Source: Candidatus Limnocylindrales bacterium
Lineage (GTDB): Bacteria > Eisenbacteria > RBG-16-71-46 > SZUA-252
Length of the DNA: 39,502 nt
Reading direction: 5' to 3'
Assembly (NCBI GenBank): GCA_035300625.1
Contig: DATGVG010000193.1
Location: 1 to 39,502 of the forward strand
The notes under the pieces were generated by a model. It worked only from the letters and a program-made list of their open reading frames with translations. It was not told the origin of the DNA and did not search any database. The position numbers and the translations under genes are program-made. Below are positions 29,227 through 36,678 of the stretch, one piece after another. The stretch's first letter is position 1; each line of letters opens with the position of its first letter.

Positions 29227-30651
29227 TCACCCCGTCCGGACCAGCGTCGCGACGCATTCGATGTGGGGCGTGTGCGGAAACATGTCCACCGGGCGGACCC
29301 ACTCGAGGCGGTAGCGGGACTCGCAGAAGAGCGCCAGGTCGCGGCCCAGAGTCGACGGATTGCACGAGACGTAGACAAGTCGCGGCGCCCCCATCCGGAT
29401 CAGCCGGCTCACCACGCCCGGATGAAGGCCCGCCCGCGGCGGGTCGACGAGCACCGCGTCGATGGCGGCCGGGCTCGCCGACCCCTCGGCGCCGAAGTGG
29501 TCGCGGAGCGCTTCCACCGCCTCCTCCCGGAGAAACCGGACGTTTGAGATCCCGTTCCTGGCGGCGTTCCGCTCGGCGTCGAGCACCGCCGCCGCGGACG
29601 ACTCGACCCCGATCGCCTCCCGCGCTCGGAGCGCGATCGGGAGGGTGAAGGTCCCAGTTCCAGAGTACAGGTCCAGCACCCGCTCGCCGCCGGTGAGGGC
29701 CAGTCCCTCGAGGGCGGTCTCGAGGAGGCGCTCCGCCTGCTCGGTGTTGGTCTGAAAGAACGAGGCCGACGAGATCTCGAAGACCAGTCCTCCCAGGCGC
29801 TCCTCGATGCGGTCCTTCCCCGCCAGCACCCGCTCCTCCTCGCCGACGGCTACCTGCGCCTTCCGGCGCGTCAGGTTCAGGAGGACGCTCGCGACCGCCG
29901 GGAAGCGCGCGGTGATCCGCCGCGCGAACCCCTCGAAGGCGGGGTGCGGGTCGCCCGCGACCAGGTTGACCATCACCTGGCCGGTCCGGACGCCCTCGCG
30001 GACGACGAGGTAGCGCAAAAGACCGGCGTGGCGGCGCGTGTCGTAGGGGGTCAGCTTTTCCTCGATCGCCCAGGCGCGGGTCTCGGCGACGATCTCGCTC
30101 GCGATCGGCCTCGCGATGTGGCAGCGCGCCAGGTCGAAGGCGCGATCGAAGAAGCCGCGGCGATGAAGTCCCAGGGTGAGTGTGCCGTCCGCGTCCCCCC
30201 GCCCGAATGAGAATTCCATCTTGTTCCGGTAGTGGAACTGGGACGGCGCCGCGATGACCGGCAGGGCGGCGGCGGCGATTCCGCCCAGATGGGCCAGGCA
30301 CGCCTCCACCTGCCGCTCCTTGTGGCGGAGCTGCTCCGGGTAGGCGAGATCCTGGAAACGGCAGCCGCCGCAGATCGCGACGTGCTCGCAGCGCGCCTCC
30401 ACCCGGAACGGGGAGGCTCGAAGAATCCGGTCCGCCCGCGCCTCGGCGTACTGGCGCTTCCTGCGGAACACGGTCGCCGCGACGCGATCGCCGGGGAGGG
30501 CGTTTTCGACGAAGACCACCAGGCCGTCGACCTTGGCAAGGGCGGCCCCGCCGAAGGCGAGATCCTCCACCTCCAACTCGAGCGTCGCCCCCCGGCGAAC
30601 GTCGGCGGCCGGGCGGGAAAATGGCGGTGCGGACGCTTGATTGTGGGTCAC
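29227..30651 (-). CDS. rlmD: TrmA/RumA-family 23S rRNA (uracil-C5)-methyltransferase
   Basis: N-terminal TRAM-like domain (LEVEDLAFGGAALAKVDGLVVFVENALPGDRV), an Fe-S cysteine cluster (CEHVAICGGCRFQ), a SAM fold (VLDLYSGTGTFTLPIA) and the catalytic tail VYVSCNPSTLGRDL...DMFPHTPHIE. The exact rRNA target is not resolvable from sequence alone. Confidence 0.8.
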   Translation of the reverse strand: MTHNQASAPPFSRPAADVRRGATLELEVEDLAFGGAALAKVDGLVVFVENALPGDRVAATVFRRKRQYAEARADRILRASPFRVEARCEHVAICGGCRFQDLAYPEQLRHKERQVEACLAHLGGIAAAALPVIAAPSQFHYRNKMEFSFGRGDADGTLTLGLHRRGFFDRAFDLARCHIARPIASEIVAETRAWAIEEKLTPYDTRRHAGLLRYLVVREGVRTGQVMVNLVAGDPHPAFEGFARRITARFPAVASVLLNLTRRKAQVAVGEEERVLAGKDRIEERLGGLVFEISSASFFQTNTEQAERLLETALEGLALTGGERVLDLYSGTGTFTLPIALRAREAIGVESSAAAVLDAERNAARNGISNVRFLREEAVEALRDHFGAEGSASPAAIDAVLVDPPRAGLHPGVVSRLIRMGAPRLVYVSCNPSTLGRDLALFCESRYRLEWVRPVDMFPHTPHIECVATLVRTG

Positions 30652-30726
30652 CGGCCGATCTTACACCACGGCGCAAACCCCAAGAACGGGCTTAGGGTAG
30701 CTCGTCTCAGGGCCGATAGGAGACGC

Positions 30727-31395
30727 ATGCGGTCTCGACCGACCGCCGGGGGCGTCGTCCTGGGCCTGCTCCTGGCAAACTCAGCCGTTGCGGGAACGAT
30801 CGTGGGGTCGGTGACACTCACGCCGGCCGACCTTTCGTTCCGCGGGGGAGCCAGATCGAATGCGTATGTGGGACAACTCAGCGGAGCGGCCGGAAATTCC
30901 GGATCCGTGGTTCCATCCGACACCACCTACGGCGTCGCCTACCTCTCGGACGTCCCGATCACGGAAGCCCCGCCGGCGTCCGTCCTCCTCGACCAGAAGG
31001 GGCAGAGGTTCATTCCTCGGATTCTTGCGGTCGTGGTGGGGCAGGCCGTGGAATTCCGGAACAGCGACAACGTCTTTCACAACGTGTTCTCGTACTCCCC
31101 GCCCAAGCGGTTCGACCTCGGACGTTACCCCCGGGGAAAGTCGAAGCGACTGATCTTCCAGAAGCCCGGGCTGGTCCAGGTCTTCTGCGACATCCATTCG
31201 GACATGCGCTCGGACATCGTCGTCGTTCCCAGCCGCCGCTTTGCGTACGTCGGGGCGGACGGCCGTTTCCGCATCGAGGATGCGCCGGAGGGGAAGCACA
31301 CGTTGGTGCTATGGCTCCCGCGGCGGGGGGAGCGGACCGCCTCGATCGAGGTCGCCGCGAATGGAACGACGGCCGCCGTTCTCGGCGCCGAGTGA
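30727..31395 (+). CDS. Exported cupredoxin-like protein with a type-1 copper ligand set and a CarboxypepD_reg-like C-terminal domain
   Basis: ATG 30727 has AGGAG 4 nt upstream. After a signal peptide come the candidate ligands His (VFHNVFS) and C-x2-H-x2-M (FCDIHSDM), spaced as in amicyanin. The C-terminal part, GRFRIEDAPEGKHTLVLW, is beta-sandwich-like. Confidence 0.65.
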   Translation: MRSRPTAGGVVLGLLLANSAVAGTIVGSVTLTPADLSFRGGARSNAYVGQLSGAAGNSGSVVPSDTTYGVAYLSDVPITEAPPASVLLDQKGQRFIPRILAVVVGQAVEFRNSDNVFHNVFSYSPPKRFDLGRYPRGKSKRLIFQKPGLVQVFCDIHSDMRSDIVVVPSRRFAYVGADGRFRIEDAPEGKHTLVLWLPRRGERTASIEVAANGTTAAVLGAE

Positions 31396-31408
31396 CGCCC
31401 CGGCACCG

Positions 31409-33310
31409 ATGACGCGCCGCCCCCGCATCTCCCTTCTTCTCAAGATCACCGCCCTCACGTCCCTTCCGATCCTGGGGGTGATGGTGGCCGCGCTCTTCCT
31501 GGTGAATTACCGCCTAGCGGACGAGGTGAACAAGACGGTCACGTCCGACCTCTCCCGCGCCGCCCTCGCCTTCGAGAACCAGATGGAGCGCGAGGGCGAA
31601 AACCTCGAGCGGATCGGCGTGGTGGTGGCGCGCGATCCGAAGTTCTTCGCCCTCCTGATCCTGCCGCGGACCGACCGGCAGAACGCCGATTTCCATCAGA
31701 CTCTTCTCGGAGTGGCGAGCGACTTCCAGCGCGACGCCGAGACGCATCTCTTCGACGTGACCGACGAGCACGGGATCGTGCTCGCGGGAGCGGGCCGGAC
31801 CGATCCCCCGGGCGCGGACCGGTCGAGCTGGCCCCTCGTCCGGGCCGCGATGGCCGGGCGCCCGGGGCGAGGCTACCTGATCGAGGGCGATCGGGCCTAC
31901 CGCGTGGCCACCGTCCCCATCCTGGTCCAGGGCGAGCAGGTCGGCACCCTGACCCTCGGCCGCCTGATCGATTTGCCGCTGGCCGAGCGCCTGAAGGCGA
32001 CCACCCGGAGCGACGTGATCTTCGTCGTGGACCGCCAGGCTCTGATCCGGACAACGCAGCGGAGCGGGCTGGCGGAACGGCTCGCGGCTGCCCCCCCGAC
32101 GGCCGGCGTGACCCACGTCATCGACGGCGGCAGCCGGTTTCTCGCCCTGCGGGAACGGCTGGACGGCGCGACCTCGGGCGGCACGGTGGACTTCGTCCTC
32201 CTCCGCGCGCTCGACCAGGAGACCGCCGTCCTAGCGCGCATCAGCCGGGACCTCACCCTCGCGGGCGCGGCCCTGATCGTGGTGGCGCTCCTGGTCGGAT
32301 TCCTGGTCTCCAGCGGCATCACCCGCCCCGTGCGCCGGCTCGTGGAGGCGGCGTCCGCGATGCGCGACGGCGACTACGACTACCCGCTCGAGGTGACCTC
32401 CCGCGACGAGATGGGCCTTCTGGCGGCGCACTTCGAGGAGATGCGCGAGTCCCAGCGGCACGAGATCGAACGTCTCGAAGAGGTCGACCGCATGAAGTCC
32501 AACTTCATCGCCATCGCCTCCCACGAGATCCTGACGCCGGTCACCACCATCCGGGGCTACGCCGACCTCATGGGGGAAGGCACGGCAGGAGCCGTTACGG
32601 ACATGCAGCGGGAGGGATTTCGGGCCATCAAGAGCGCGGCGGACGCATTGACCCGTCTGGCGCGGGACCTGACCCACATGTCCCTGATCGACCGGCGGAA
32701 GCTGCCGGTCCAGCTCGCCCTGGTGGACGTCGGAGCACTGGTCGAGGAGGTGGCGGTGCACACCGTCTCTCTCGCCGCCGAGCGGAGCCAGATCGTGTCC
32801 ATCTCCATCGAGCCCGACCTGGGCCACCCGCGGATTGACGCGGGGTACCTGAAGCAGGCCATGACCAACCTGGCCATGAACGCCGTGCGCTTCACCCGCG
32901 ACGGGGGGTCGATCGAGATCGGCGCCCGGCGGGGTGGGGGCGAGGCGCCTGCCGGGGGGGCCGAAGGGGCGGCGAGTGCCGGTGCGGCGGAGGCAGGTGT
33001 GGGAACGGTCGAGATCTACGTGACCGACACGGGGATCGGAATCTCGAAGGACGACTTCGAGAAGATCTTCGCGAAGATCGTGGAGCTGAAGGACGTGAAC
33101 CTGCATTCCTCCGGCACCACGCAGTTCAACTCCTCCGGGCTGGGACTGGGGCTCTCCATCGCCCGGGGAATCGTGGAGGCGCATGGCGGCACGATCGAGG
33201 TGGAGAGCGAGGTCGGCCGGGGAAGCACCTTCACCATCGTGATCCCGCTCCCGCAGGCGGAAGTGGATCTGGTCCCGGGAAGCGACCTGGACCTCCCTCT
33301 AGCTAGCTGA
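31409..33310 (+). CDS. Membrane sensor histidine kinase (extracytoplasmic sensor, HAMP, HisKA, HATPase_c)
   Basis: ATG 31409 lies 13 bp after the cupredoxin stop. Two TM segments flank a domain of about 280 aa. Then come a HAMP-like region (ITRPVRRLVEAASAMRDGDYD), an H-box (ASHEILTPVTTIRGYADL), an N-box (NLAMNAVRFT) and G-boxes (DTGIGI, GLGLGLSIARGIVEAHGG). A Gly/Ala-rich insertion interrupts the ATPase domain. No response regulator is adjacent. Confidence 0.9.
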   Translation: MTRRPRISLLLKITALTSLPILGVMVAALFLVNYRLADEVNKTVTSDLSRAALAFENQMEREGENLERIGVVVARDPKFFALLILPRTDRQNADFHQTLLGVASDFQRDAETHLFDVTDEHGIVLAGAGRTDPPGADRSSWPLVRAAMAGRPGRGYLIEGDRAYRVATVPILVQGEQVGTLTLGRLIDLPLAERLKATTRSDVIFVVDRQALIRTTQRSGLAERLAAAPPTAGVTHVIDGGSRFLALRERLDGATSGGTVDFVLLRALDQETAVLARISRDLTLAGAALIVVALLVGFLVSSGITRPVRRLVEAASAMRDGDYDYPLEVTSRDEMGLLAAHFEEMRESQRHEIERLEEVDRMKSNFIAIASHEILTPVTTIRGYADLMGEGTAGAVTDMQREGFRAIKSAADALTRLARDLTHMSLIDRRKLPVQLALVDVGALVEEVAVHTVSLAAERSQIVSISIEPDLGHPRIDAGYLKQAMTNLAMNAVRFTRDGGSIEIGARRGGGEAPAGGAEGAASAGAAEAGVGTVEIYVTDTGIGISKDDFEKIFAKIVELKDVNLHSSGTTQFNSSGLGLGLSIARGIVEAHGGTIEVESEVGRGSTFTIVIPLPQAEVDLVPGSDLDLPLAS

Positions 33311-33381
33311 TCCGCGCCCATCAGTGCTCCCGTGCGATGGGCGCTCGGGGGGCTCCCATAGACAAGCGCCGCGGACACGTA

Positions 33382-33410
33382 TTGTCAAGCTTTGGCGACA
33401 TAACTAAACT
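33382..33410 (+). promoter_or_regulatory. Candidate sigma70-type promoter in the AT-rich island
   Basis: TTGTCA (33382-33387), a 17-nt spacer, then TAAACT (33405-33410). This would give a leader of about 240 nt ahead of the first sORF. It is a motif match only. Confidence 0.3.
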
Positions 33411-33653
33411 GCTATTAACTAATAAGTTACTAGGTGCCGCTGAGAGTAGTCACTCCCCACGGACACTCTGAAGCTCTCCGTAGCGCCGCAGCGCGCAAAT
33501 CGCCATCCCTGTAACGCACTTCCAATCAATGGATTAGCGCCCAAGATTTAACGTGCCTTGCAAATGGCATGGCGACTGCTTTGTAACCCTCGCGTCGAAG
33601 CTCACTCGCGGACGCGAGCAAGGCGACGGACCCCAAACCAGACGAGGTGTGAA

Positions 33654-33725
33654 ATGGCAGCTCTGATCCTGATCGCGATCTTCGTGTCATTGGCTGATGG
33701 CTCGGGCGGCAAGGCTGGCTGGTAA
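33654..33725 (+). CDS. Small ORF 1, 23-aa hydrophobic peptide MAALILIAIFVSLADGSGGKAGW
   Basis: ATG 33654 has an SD-like gaggtg just upstream, and TAA is at 33723-33725. A paralogous copy lies 137 bp downstream and differs almost only at synonymous sites. Too short to appear in the ORF track. Confidence 0.65.
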   Translation: MAALILIAIFVSLADGSGGKAGW

Positions 33726-33790
33726 CGAATCGGAAATGCGGTGCCGGTGACGAACGCAGCTGACCCAAACCGAAGAGAGGGGGTGACAGC

Positions 33791-33862
33791 ATGGCAGCTC
33801 TGATCCTGATCGCGATTTTCCTATCGTTGGCCGACGGTTCCGGAGGTAAGGCAGGCTGGTAA
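33791..33862 (+). CDS. Small ORF 2, 23-aa hydrophobic peptide MAALILIAIFLSLADGSGGKAGW
   Basis: ATG 33791 has an SD-like agggggtg 5 nt upstream, and TAA is at 33860-33862. An in-frame TGA at 33761 rules out a longer N-terminus. Of the 11 nt differences from sORF1, 10 are at third codon positions, and the only residue change is V to L. Confidence 0.65.
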   Translation: MAALILIAIFLSLADGSGGKAGW

Positions 33863-34092
33863 GCGGTAACGCCGCGGTCCCTACGCGGCGCCGTCTGCAG
33901 GGAGGGCGAACCCCTGGAGGCGGGTGAGGCGGACCGATGGGCCATCGGAAGAAGCCCCCCTGGTGGCCCGTCGTTTTGCCTGTGGCGGCGGAACGGATTC
34001 CAGGGGGGCGGCTGGCCAGCGGCGGGGGTGTGTGGTACCGTGGCCGGTCGTCTCCCAAGCCGTCGCATGGCACCGTAGGGAAGGGGCGCCGG

Positions 34093-36678
34093 GTGAGCAA
34101 ACGAACACCAGCCGAAGTCGGGCTGATGCTGCAACGCGATGTCCCGTCTGAAATTCCCCTCCTTCCCCTGATGAGCACCGTCGTTTTTCCCCTCGGTGTC
34201 ACCTCCATCCAGGTCCGCATCGAGCAATCGAAGGCCCTCCTCCGCGAGCACTCCGATCCCGACACGCTGGTAGCCCTGGTGTACAGCCCGGCGAAGCGGG
34301 AAGAGGAGATCCGGTCCGAAGAGCTGAGCAAGATCGGGCTCGCGGCCCGGATCATCCGGAGCATGAACATGCCCGGGGGAAACGTGCAGGTCACCCTCGA
34401 GGGACTGCGCCGCCTCCGGATCGAGGAGATCCTGCGCACCGAGCCCTACCTGATGGCACGCGTGACCTGTCCCGAGGAGACCGTCAGGGATCCCGAGAAG
34501 GTCCACGTCCTGATCAGCCGCATCCTCAAATCGCTGCGCACGCTCACGCAGCTGGACACCGGCTACCCGCCCGAGATGGACAACATCTTCAGCATGAACC
34601 TGGGCGACCCGGGACTGTTCGCCGACACGGTCGCCTCCATCGTCCGGTTCCCGCTCGAGATCAAGAAGCGCGTGATCGAGGCGCTCGATGTCGAGGGACG
34701 ACTGGCCGTGGTCGCGGAGGGGATCGATTCGGAGATCGCGCGGCTGAGTGTGGCCGAGGACGTGGTGCGGCGCACGAGCGCCCAGCTGGAGAAGAACCAG
34801 CGGGAGTTCTTCCTGCGCCAGCAGCTCATGGAGATCCGCCGCCTCCTGGGCGAGGACGACCCCCAGGAAATGCTGGTGCGGCAGATTCTCGAGCGCGCCG
34901 ACGGGCTGGCCCTGCCGTCGCACGTGCGGGCGGTGATGCAGGAGGAGACGAACCGGCTCCGCCTTCTGCCGCCCGCGTCGCAGGAGTCGGGAGTCATCCG
35001 GAACTATGTCGAGTGGCTCCTCTCGCTCCCCTGGGCGCGCGAGAAGCCGCCCGACATCCGGCTGGAAGAGGTGCAACGCCGGCTGAACGAGGAGCACTTC
35101 GGGCTGGAGAAGGTGAAGGAGCGGATCCTCGAATACCTCTCGGTGCTGAAGCTGAAGAACGACATGCACGGGCCCATCCTGTGCTTCGCGGGGCCCCCCG
35201 GCACGGGGAAGACCTCGCTGGGCGCGTCGATCGCCCGCGCCATGGGCCGCGCCTTCGTCCGCATGAGCGTGGGGGGCGTGCGCGACGAGGCCGAGATCCG
35301 CGGGCACCGCCGCACCTACGTCGGATCGCGGCCGGGGAAAATATTGAGATCCCTGCGCGACGCTCGCTCCTCCAGCCCGGTCTTCATGATCGACGAGATC
35401 GACAAGCTGGGGCACGACTCCGACGGGGATCCCGCCTCGGCCCTGCTCGAGGTGCTGGATCCGGAGCAGAACCGGCACTTCGTCGACCATTACGTCGAGA
35501 TTCCGTACGACCTGTCCGACATCCTCTTCATCACCACCGCGAACGTGCTGGACTTCATCCCCTCCGCGCTCCTCGACCGCCTGGAAGTGATCCAGATCCC
35601 GGGCTACATGGAGGAGGAGAAGCTGGAGATCGCGCGGCGCCACCTGGTGCCGCGCGAAGCGAAAGAGCACGGCCTGGCGGCCACCGACATCGCATTCGAC
35701 GACGCGGCCCTGATCAAGATCATCCGCGAGTATACCCGCGAGGCGGGCGTGCGGCAGCTGGAGCGCGCGATCGACACCTTTTGCCGGAAGGCGGCTCGTC
35801 AGCGCACCACCGGCTACACGGGAGACTGGCGCTTTTCGGTGGCCGACGTGGAGCCGATCCTGGGCCCGCCCTACATCGTCCCTGACGTCGCCGAGGGGCA
35901 CGCCGAGGTGGGCGTGGCGACGGGACTGGCCTGGACGGCCACGGGCGGCGACCTGCTCCTGATCGAGGCACTCAAGATGCGGGGCGCCGGCCGCGTGATC
36001 GTGACCGGCCAGCTGGGCGACGTCATGAAGGAGTCGGTGCAGGCCGCGCATTCGTACGTGCGAGCCCGGGCCGAGCTCCTGGGAATCGACCCCCAGCTAT
36101 TCGACGATTACGACCTCCACATCCACTTCCCCGAGGGCGCCGTGCCCAAGGACGGCCCCTCCGCCGGGATCACCATTGTCATGGCCATCGCCTCGGCGCT
36201 GGCCGAGGCGCCCATCCGGAACGACGTGGCCATGACCGGCGAGGTGACGCTGCGCGGCAAGGTGCTCGCGGTCGGGGGGCTTAAAGAAAAGGTCATGGCT
36301 GCCTACCGCGCCGGAATCAAGACCGTGGTCTTTCCGTCGGACAACCAGAAAGATTTGGTCGAGATTCCCGAGCCGATCCGCTCGAAGATCACGTTCATCG
36401 CGGTCAGCGCCGTGGACGAGGTCTTCCAGCACGCGTTCGCGGGCGTCGCCGAGCGCATCGCCCAGCTGGAGGCGAAGCGCAAGGCGCGCGAGGAAAAGCG
36501 GAAGTCGAAGACGCGGAAGACCCGCACGGTTCAGGCGGCGCGCCGGAGGAAACCCAAGCCCCCGAAGCGCGCACGCCTGCCCAAAGCCGCGGGCGCCACG
36601 CGAGCCGCGAAGGGGACGCGCGGGAAGACCGGCCGAAACGGACGTTCGGCAGCGCGTCGCGCCCAGCGTTCTCAGTAG
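34093..36678 (+). CDS. lon: ATP-dependent Lon protease (LonA) with a basic C-terminal extension
   Basis: Lon N-domain ([21 protein letters not shown]), Walker A ([11 protein letters not shown]), Walker B ([10 protein letters not shown]) and the S16 catalytic region ([19 protein letters not shown]). The start is either GTG 34093, with ggaagggg upstream, or ATG 34126 ([15 protein letters not shown]). Confidence 0.95.

Follow-up and report, generated by a model that had tools for sequence, protein, structure and literature searches.

Two tandem small open reading frames (sORFs), each of 23 codons, lie between a sensor histidine kinase gene and lon in the window, by which we mean the whole 39.5-kb (39,502-nt) stretch of bacterial DNA that was analyzed. 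Comparison with relatives indicates that both sORFs are real coding genes under strong purifying selection, their coding nature being nearly certain. Their peptides form a small-protein family that is new and found across the phylum; gene callers overlook it or predict it only in a wrongly extended form. The order of promoter, sORFs, structured RNA and lon holds in 13/13 lineages sampled, and among the functions considered here we tentatively favor that of a peptide acting in trans on Lon. The two sORFs and their Shine-Dalgarno (SD) sequences are placed as follows.

33654..33725, forward strand: sORF1, ATG start and 23 codons, then TAA, encoding the peptide MAALILIAIFVSLADGSGGKAGW
33791..33862, forward strand: sORF2, ATG start and 23 codons, then TAA, encoding the peptide MAALILIAIFLSLADGSGGKAGW
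33644-33649, forward strand: SD1, GAGGTG, 4 nt 5’ of the sORF1 start
33779-33785, forward strand: SD2, GGGGGTG, 5 nt 5’ of the sORF2 start; GGAGGTG or GGGGGTG across every lineage

This placement agrees with a sequence-only reading made previously of the same DNA, which had put the two starts 137 nt apart, with a TAA stop at the end of each frame and an SD-like purine tract before it. Its count of the differences between the copies was likewise reproduced. The sORFs differ at 11 of 69 coding nt, with ten differences at codon position 3 and one at position 1, and the sole residue change between them is V11L (GTG→CTA, codon position 1). With random placement, the probability of finding at least 10 of 11 differences at position 3 is 23/177147, or ~1.3e-4 by our own arithmetic. 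The first 26 nt are the same in sORF1 and sORF2, as had also been stated. The exact repeat is limited to the 72-nt ORF, and the SD contexts of the two copies are unlike.

As a single 23-aa peptide is too short for the purpose, relatives were found with a concatenated two-copy peptide query, which returned six N-terminally extended, mis-called ‘hypothetical proteins’, all ending in ...LIAIFxS[LF]xxxxGGKAGW. The contigs of these six, together with degenerate DNA scans, yielded seven lineages (lineages and their loci are given L numbers below), and in each of them two tandem sORFs lie between the kinase gene and lon. The degenerate DNA pattern (A-I-F, 21 nt, GGKAGW-stop) was too narrow, since other lineages have a different hydrophobic part; it matched 2 species representatives in genome contigs and, in metagenomes, 3 real loci plus 2 chance non-ORF matches, and these scans do not fix the limits of the family outside Eisenbacteria. 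A second sample was blind to the peptide and comprised six Lon orthologs, 73-86% identical, that were fetched by Lon homology alone. Both sORFs were found upstream of lon in 6/6 of these loci. Exactly two tandem sORFs are thus present upstream of lon in 13/13 Candidatus Eisenbacteria lineages sampled, for a total of 30 copies at 15 loci. The tabulated set holds 28 copies, among which 26 nucleotide sequences and 21 peptides are distinct; the L022 pair stands outside the table and adds further distinct peptides. At two lon loci of other phyla (~51% Lon identity; miaE-lon spacer of 25-105 nt), none of the sORFs, promoter or RNA was found. Four peptide variants gave no match in Pfam or NCBIfam, even at E<=10, in keeping with the earlier remark that no named family could be recognized.

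In public annotation, gene calls P0002, P0004, P0005 and P0006 give sORF1 only as a ‘hypothetical protein’ of 52-75 aa, the N-terminal part of which is translated sigma-54 promoter and leader (e.g., ...CKWHGDCFVTLASK...). sORF2 is mostly uncalled, and the overlong ORFs of the window span 33553-33666 and 33558-33725.

Across the copies the peptides are 19-25 aa long and share one architecture: Met is followed usually by Glu or Asp (also Ala), then come a hydrophobic segment 11-14 residues in length, a turn-like linker that is 0-6 residues long and, lastly, GGKAGW. The grand average of hydropathy (GRAVY) of the N-terminal part is 1.3-2.5, and the linker variants include ADGS, GNPD, ADTG, GPIG, AGGG, LPPP and none at all. 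GGKAGW is invariant, and Trp stands directly before the stop codon in 30/30 copies despite the varying peptide length. The last six codons show no non-synonymous and at least 10 synonymous variants among the 26 distinct sequences (GGC/GGT/GGA/GGG, AAG/AAA and GCT/GCC/GCA/GCG). Every indel inside an ORF has a length divisible by three, and the inter-ORF spacer varies from 61 to 84 nt. An SD sequence is located 4-8 nt upstream in 28/28 tabulated copies, and the L022 pair has the same SD, frame and GGKAGW tail. The stop codons of the 26 distinct sORF sequences are TAA in 22 and TAG in 4, with no TGA, whereas the other 23 genes of the window, which has 68% G+C, use TGA 16 times, TAG 6 times and TAA once; a preference for TAA right after a terminal Trp codon fits avoidance of the leaky UGA.

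These synonymous-biased tail codons, whole-codon indels, SD sequences and stop codon usage show that the sORFs are coding and not a non-coding repeat. Selection on the peptide, which the third-position bias of the window copies had suggested, is borne out by the frame, length class and C-terminal motif being kept in 13/13 lineages, and the homologs carry in-frame indels only. The pattern that had been proposed for scoring in relatives persists in part: frame, the 19-25-aa length class and GGKAGW persist, whereas the hydrophobic part and the linker differ between lineages. High-GC DNA yields many spurious ORFs and a structured RNA lies directly downstream, so that the ORFs might be thought accidental, with the repeat being non-coding or belonging to a structured RNA. 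In view of the third-position bias, the in-frame indels, an SD sequence on every copy, an invariant motif with varying codons and a region without conserved pairing, the probability of this explanation is negligible, and it is effectively refuted by the comparative data.

The identity of the first 26 nt had been taken as a possible sign of constraint at the RNA level, such as a pairing site. This idea found no support, as no conserved pairing involves the sORFs: the alignment fold of the sORF region showed none. Synonymous differences do occur inside the 26-nt stretch in other lineages, and the Ile, Phe and Leu codons are nearly fixed through codon bias (ATC 93%, TTC 91%). RNA structure as the cause of sORF conservation was also considered and rejected, the sole predicted helix (the GAUCGCGAUC palindromes) being broken in the L006/L009 clade.

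The upstream contexts of copy 1 and copy 2 differ and each of them is conserved (...CCCAAACCAGAYGAGGTG vs ...GAAAGGAGGTG), and these copy-specific SD contexts show that the duplication is ancestral. Despite this, the coding parts group by genome in 13/13 lineages, with a variable-part identity of 0.84 within and 0.45 between genomes. The ratio of non-synonymous to synonymous differences (pN/pS) within genomes is 0-0.13 in 6/8 lineages compared, and 0.26 and 0.31 in L004 and L009; within-genome pS reaches up to 0.55 in two lineages. Between lineages, pN/pS is 0.2-1.0 and the changes are concentrated in the linker. Clustering by genome in the face of an ancestral duplication shows that the copies evolve in concert, through gene conversion and/or co-selection, and a concerted pair is consistent with a single product encoded by both genes. 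The Lon proteins of L001 and L002 are 99% identical (pN 0.007, pS 0.20). Between L001/L010 and L002 the whole linker (codons 14-17) differs in both copies, GNPD vs ADGS (pN 0.12), and the GNPD linker reappears in the distant L009. This pattern points to linkers exchanged in the manner of alleles or to diversifying selection acting on them.

Upstream of the sORFs, the following features were recognized.

33565..33580, forward strand: sigma-54-type promoter TGGCATGGCGACTGCT, GG at -24 and GC at -12, with a predicted start at ~33591
33524..33536, forward strand: IHF-consensus site AATCAATGGATTA, 29 nt upstream of the -24 element
33447..33466, forward strand: second candidate activator site, TAGTCAC...GGACACT, a direct repeat of 33359-33378
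33359..33400, forward strand: candidate upstream activator sequence (UAS), with GACA/GTCA blocks AGACAAG, GGACA, TGTCAAG and CGACA at ~10-11 bp spacing, AT-rich
33591..33653, forward strand: 5’ leader, with a small conserved hairpin UCGC/GCGA at ~33606-33617, a C/A-rich tract and SD1

The sigma-54 element is the single match in the window at TGGCAC-N5-TTGCW spacing, where 0 are expected, and in the kinase-lon spacer alignment TGGCA[CT]G.CG..TGCT is invariant in 13/13 lineages while its flanks vary. Similarly, WATCAANNNNTTR has no match in the 39.5-kb window other than the IHF site, where 0.07 matches are expected; the site is only partly conserved in other lineages. Within the candidate UAS, columns C40-A42, G51-A54, G61-A64 and C73-A77 of alignment A1 are invariant and similar blocks are present in L017-L022, and the GACACT columns 139-144 of the second block are invariant in the same alignment. 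The GACA/GTCA blocks lie 100-200 bp upstream of the sigma-54 element and are candidate sites for a putative enhancer-binding protein. A sigma-70-like match, TTGTCA-17-TAAACT, overlaps the candidate UAS. On the forward strand, positions 33359-33580 hold the layout of an enhancer-dependent promoter entire, with phased blocks, an IHF-like site and a sigma-54 element.

In the 5’ leader, the hairpin pairs 31-34/39-43 are invariant in alignment A3. The sequence-only reading had described the sORFs as lying behind long structured leaders, and neither part of this description stands: the predicted sigma-54 start (~33591) is only ~63 nt from sORF1, and the strongly folded RNA is found 3’ of sORF2 instead of upstream of the pair. 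The features between sORF2 and the end of lon are listed here.

33892..34066, forward strand: structured RNA of ~175 nt with three domains, between sORF2 and lon, ending ~30 nt before lon
33870..33890, forward strand: GC-only hairpin, CGCCGCG-N7-CGCGGCG, without a U tract
34093..36678, forward strand: lon (ATP-dependent protease La, 861 aa), GTG start, preceded by GGGAAGGGG at 34078-34086

Of the three domains of the structured RNA, one is a hairpin whose loop, AGGGCGAAC, is conserved, another is a long hairpin (CGAUGGGCCA.../...UGGUGGCCCGUCG) and the third consists of several helices. Its 54 predicted pairs are 91% paired and 16 of them show compensatory changes, a result that is reached by 0/500 shuffles, and slid controls are 41-55% paired. 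The stretch is more conserved than the genes around it and is present in the window, L001, L002, L004, L006, L009 and L016-L022. Many conserved G-U pairs place the RNA on the forward strand, and a 1-nt indel among close relatives shows that the stretch is non-coding. An N-terminal extension of Lon from the ATG at 33937 (33937-34092, forward strand) was rejected on account of that indel and of covariation, both of which mark the stretch as RNA. Positions 33954-33963 may also pair with 34000-34009 in an alternative or pseudoknot helix, which is weakly supported. Rfam gave no match at gathering thresholds across the window, and the best E-value-threshold match in this region scored 20.9 bits vs the 55 needed. 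The fold z-score of the whole transcript is -0.76, which is unremarkable, as expected for GC-rich sequence. Judged by its pattern of substitutions, the RNA is a new covarying motif absent from Rfam, and it is probably the regulatory leader of lon.

The GC-only hairpin is present only in the group formed by the window, L001, L002, L004, L016, L017 and L018, and is absent in L019-L022 (alignments A2 and A4). It is probably not an efficient terminator, and its absence in L019-L022 rules it out as a universal one. In L019-L021, the leader RNA starts 8-20 nt past the sORF2 stop without any terminator. The lack of a terminator in L019-L021, together with the clade-specific distribution of the GC hairpin and its want of a U tract, suggests one transcript that runs from the promoter through sORF1, sORF2 and the leader RNA into lon, and we infer from this that the sORFs are co-transcribed with lon.

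A transcript of this kind might carry the sORFs as cis-acting upstream ORFs (uORFs), i.e., as leader or arrest peptides, with their translation or ribosome stalling on them, perhaps at GGKAGW-stop, remodeling the leader RNA and thereby affecting read-through into lon or its translation. The sORFs lie 3’ of the promoter and 5’ of lon, with the covarying ~175-nt RNA and its possible alternative helix coming after them, their most conserved residues are the last six, nearest the peptidyl-transferase centre, and in L019-L021 the sORF2 stop is only 8-20 nt from the first RNA helix. K-A-G-W is also loosely like R-A-G-P, the motif generally known from SecM. However, the first conserved helix follows the sORF2 stop after ~8-45 nt, with no fixed register and with an extra hairpin in some clades, and after sORF1 nothing is conserved or structured. 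The hydrophobic part lies at a distance from the C-terminus that varies by 0-6 residues, and such variation would be uncommon in tunnel-dependent arrest; nor does the conserved hydrophobicity have an obvious role in the exit tunnel. TAA is the most efficient stop, and so strong a preference for it speaks against termination stalling; copies held alike by concerted evolution resemble product dosage. TnaC, SecM and attenuator leaders are comparable in being short ORFs in a 5’ leader with a conserved C-terminal end and a structured RNA behind them (TnaC has 24 aa); the sORFs, by contrast, come as two near-identical copies, keep no constant spacing to the RNA, vary in their linker and prefer TAA. 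On balance, we consider cis-action of this type unlikely, although among the rivals of a trans-acting product it ranks first.

The dosage-like duplication, strong SD sequences, TAA stops and absence of anything conserved after sORF1 point instead to a product that acts in trans. We therefore favor, as a tentative possibility, the reading that the sORFs encode trans-acting, tiny membrane or hydrophobic peptides that are made together with Lon and whose C-terminal Trp would dock on the Lon N-domain; the product is probably a Lon-associated micro-protein rather than a toxin. Two efficiently translated gene copies would supply one micro-protein. An inducible sigma-54 promoter, requiring an enhancer-binding activator, would transcribe the sORFs, and the neighboring sensor kinase would probably feed that activator, as HsfB/HsfA do for Myxococcus lonD. 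Most likely the transcript would continue through the structured leader RNA into lon, so that peptide and protease would be co-made under stress. The peptide would act in trans and insert into the inner membrane N-out/C-in, or alternatively might just display a hydrophobic patch. The acidic N-end and the Lys near the C-end would, by the positive-inside rule, leave the tail in the cytoplasm. There, the terminal aromatic residue and carboxylate of GGKAGW-COOH may dock in the substrate pocket of the Lon N-domain, as those of LarA and degron peptides do, with the outcome that Lon would be activated, recruited or tuned. A receptor pocket for C-termini would be expected to select for an invariant free Trp and a flexible Gly-rich tail on a hydrophobic helix. 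We infer both the membrane topology and the Lon interaction.

The comparison that underlies this reading is with LarA of Caulobacter. LarA is a heat-shock protein that ends in a short degron, and a pocket of the Lon N-domain takes up the terminal aromatic residue of this degron together with its carboxylate; degron peptides are bound likewise through a terminal aromatic or hydrophobic residue and the carboxylate, and the binding activates proteolysis (PMC11882793, PMC10665427). The pocket residues of Caulobacter Lon (CcLon) are L12, I15, L25 and R29 (PMC11882793). LarA and HspQ are small, stress-induced activators dedicated to Lon; similarly, the Eisenbacteria peptides end in a free Trp and are always encoded beside lon. 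LarA has 89 aa and an alpha/beta fold, in contrast to peptides of 19-25 aa that match no family and are encoded by tandem genes in the lon leader. The sORF peptides are also very hydrophobic and probably membrane-embedded, are placed behind a sigma-54 promoter, and their Lon binding is putative. As there is no similarity in sequence or fold, the likeness to LarA would be one of mechanism only.

Several points weigh against a Lon-docking peptide. Aligned through the E. coli Lon N-domain, the CcLon pocket residues L12, I15, L25 and R29 correspond to L, T, I and I in the window Lon, so that the carboxylate-binding Arg29 aligns with Ile and an Arg is found one position earlier (VRI for VGR). The peptides share neither sequence nor fold with the 89-aa LarA. 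Unless the peptide is helical throughout, its hydrophobic stretch of 11-14 aa would make a short membrane span, and the position of the sORFs in the structured lon leader fits cis-regulation equally well. Finally, no rpoN or activator gene lies within the 39.5-kb window, the genomes themselves not having been searched for either. The more elaborate proposal of a dedicated Lon control module, in which one sigma-54 transcript carries a membrane-anchored twin micro-protein that plugs its Trp into the Lon N-domain and so activates or localizes the protease, a ~175-nt RNA that gates lon, and lon itself, appears to us unlikely as a whole.

A part for the kinase in such a scheme has a parallel in Myxococcus xanthus, where lonD is activated by a kinase and an NtrC-like regulator, as summarized in the passage of PMC9109919 that cites Ueki and Inouye (2002). 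The window resembles the lonD system (HsfB/HsfA phosphorelay, NtrC-type, sigma-54) in having a predicted enhancer-dependent promoter and a histidine kinase upstream of a lon gene, namely the -24/-12 element and the adjoining kinase. It differs in that no activator gene is present in the window, and neither sORFs nor a structured leader is described for lonD. The kinase gene is placed as follows.

31241..33310, forward strand: sensor histidine kinase, dCache_3-HAMP-HisKA-HATPase_c (Pfam)

The true start of the kinase is probably ~60 codons downstream of the listed TTG. The kinase or an ortholog is the upstream neighbor of the sORFs in 11/13 lineages and is absent there in L020 and L022, whereas the sORFs adjoin lon in 13/13. 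An ortholog with 32% identity is found at L009 82-1593 (forward strand) and L006 8184-9299 (reverse strand), with TALD in place of the H-box SHE; it gave no HisKA or HATPase match in Pfam and is apparently a pseudo-kinase that is still kept beside the sORFs.

The persistence of the kinase at this site, even at 32% identity, raises the question of whether the peptides are membrane modulators of the adjacent dCache-HAMP kinase, in the manner of MgrB and PhoQ, in a loop where the kinase pathway would turn on the sigma-54 promoter and the peptides would in turn tune the kinase. The peptides are hydrophobic and of a size that allows a single membrane span, and the promoter is of a regulated type; to this extent, the ‘small membrane modulator’ named by the sequence-only reading is plausible. 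However, the kinase is absent beside the sORFs in L020 and L022, the L009/L006 ortholog lacks the phospho-acceptor His while the peptides there are the same in kind, and the universal linkage is to lon and not to the kinase. Control of the kinase would also leave the invariant C-terminal Trp-stop unexplained, and we regard it as rather improbable. KdpF, AcrZ, CydX, MgtS and MgrB are similar to the sORF peptides in being tiny, probably single-span, encoded beside their partner, missed in annotation and conserved mainly in hydrophobicity. They differ in being single-copy proteins of 29-49 aa with no invariant C-terminal hexapeptide, and to our knowledge none of them partners Lon or sits in a structured sigma-54 leader.

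Short hydrophobic peptides in tandem copies had previously been likened to type I toxins. In such a case, the sORFs would encode toxin-like or stress-induced depolarizing peptides of the Ibs, TisB and DinQ kind, silenced by the sigma-54 promoter or by an antisense RNA. Their size (19-25 aa) and hydrophobicity do resemble Ibs (19 aa), the paralogs are in tandem, and promoter control is predicted to be tight. The ibs/sib and ldr/rdl loci likewise have very short hydrophobic ORFs in tandem paralogous copies, but there the whole module is repeated with its own promoter and antisense RNA, whereas here the duplicated unit is SD plus ORF only, not a toxin-antitoxin module, and a single sigma-54 promoter serves both copies. 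No conserved element is present in the spacers or on the opposite strand, where we found neither a conserved block nor a promoter-like site, the promoter consensus for this phylum not being established. The SD sequences are strong and exposed, whereas toxins of this type usually have sequestered ribosome-binding sites. Across the phylum the locus is part of the syntenic core genome and is not patchy, and there is no match to a toxin family in Pfam or NCBIfam. The resemblance to ibs/sib and ldr/rdl is therefore not borne out, given a repeat of SD plus ORF only, one transcription unit and a fixed lon neighbor, and a toxin function is quite improbable.

A secreted or processed peptide, whether a signal, a leaderless bacteriocin-like peptide or the precursor of a ribosomally synthesized and post-translationally modified peptide (RiPP), would account for a linker that varies between close relatives and for a GNPD ‘allele’ that occurs in two clades like a pherotype. 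A sensor kinase adjoins the sORFs, and enterocin HF, a class IIa bacteriocin, has the hexapeptide GGKAGW close to its C-terminus (PMC5041338). However, no transporter, peptidase or modifying enzyme is present in any locus, the peptides have no YGNGV box, no double-glycine leader and no Cys, and the enterocin HF match is a low-complexity 6-mer. The ‘secreted precursor’ proposed from the sequence is without support, there being no export or maturation genes nearby, and this explanation is very improbable. In enterocin HF, GGKAGW is located one residue before the C-terminus (...NLTTGGKAGWK; PMC5041338). Homology to class IIa bacteriocins (the enterocin HF/mundticin group) was rejected, since only GGKAGW is common to both and YGNGV, Cys and leader are missing; the match is probably coincidence or a convergent membrane-interface tail. 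The phenol-soluble modulin (PSM) alpha operon is another point of comparison, in which several leaderless peptides of ~20-26 aa with their own SD sequences are made from one regulated transcript, and RNAIII/delta-toxin of Staphylococcus combines a small ORF with a structured regulatory RNA. PSMs differ in being amphipathic secreted toxins of Firmicutes, whereas the peptides described here are uniformly hydrophobic, come from an unrelated phylum and are tied to lon.

Dedicated Lon regulators (LarA, HspQ and SmiA) have been recognized only recently. The LarA structural paper predicts further unidentified partners that use the Lon N-domain pocket, and the present locus offers a very small, synthesizable candidate for a Lon partner, with the sharp motif GGKAGW-COOH and natural variation in the linker. 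If the Lon control module were true, no smaller protease co-factor would be known, and the peptide would also be the first one encoded in the leader of its own protease; if cis-regulation were true instead, a major protease would be controlled by a previously undescribed arrest or leader-peptide system. Independent of function, the locus presents a phylum-wide small-protein family, concerted evolution of tandem micro-genes and a covarying RNA in a lon leader.

The window carries gidB, gidA, trmE, jag, yidC, rnpA, dnaA, dnaN, recF, gyrB and gyrA, a gene set that places it in an origin-proximal part of the chromosome. Its Lon has the Pfam domains LON_substr_bdg, AAA, Lon_lid and Lon_C, and the GTG start aligns with the ATG starts of orthologs. 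The protein is 93% identical to Lon of a Candidatus Eisenbacteria metagenome-assembled genome (MAG). There are ~90 Lon orthologs at 73-93% identity, followed by a gap to ~50%, and the closest come from MAGs named Candidatus Eisenbacteria. Inside this Eisenbacteria cluster, a few Lon proteins at 75-81% identity are labeled Hyphomicrobiales, Latescibacteria or Dormibacteraeota in NCBI (P0012, P0060 and P0069), and these are likely from mis-binned contigs. Directly 5’ of the kinase, in most lineages where that side is seen, a protein of ~225 aa without a Pfam domain is encoded (window 30232-31395, forward strand). Its orthologs are located at L001 7276-7956, L017 666-1337 and L021 759-1442, with a faint cupredoxin-like match in one, and it is possibly an accessory or periplasmic partner of the kinase.

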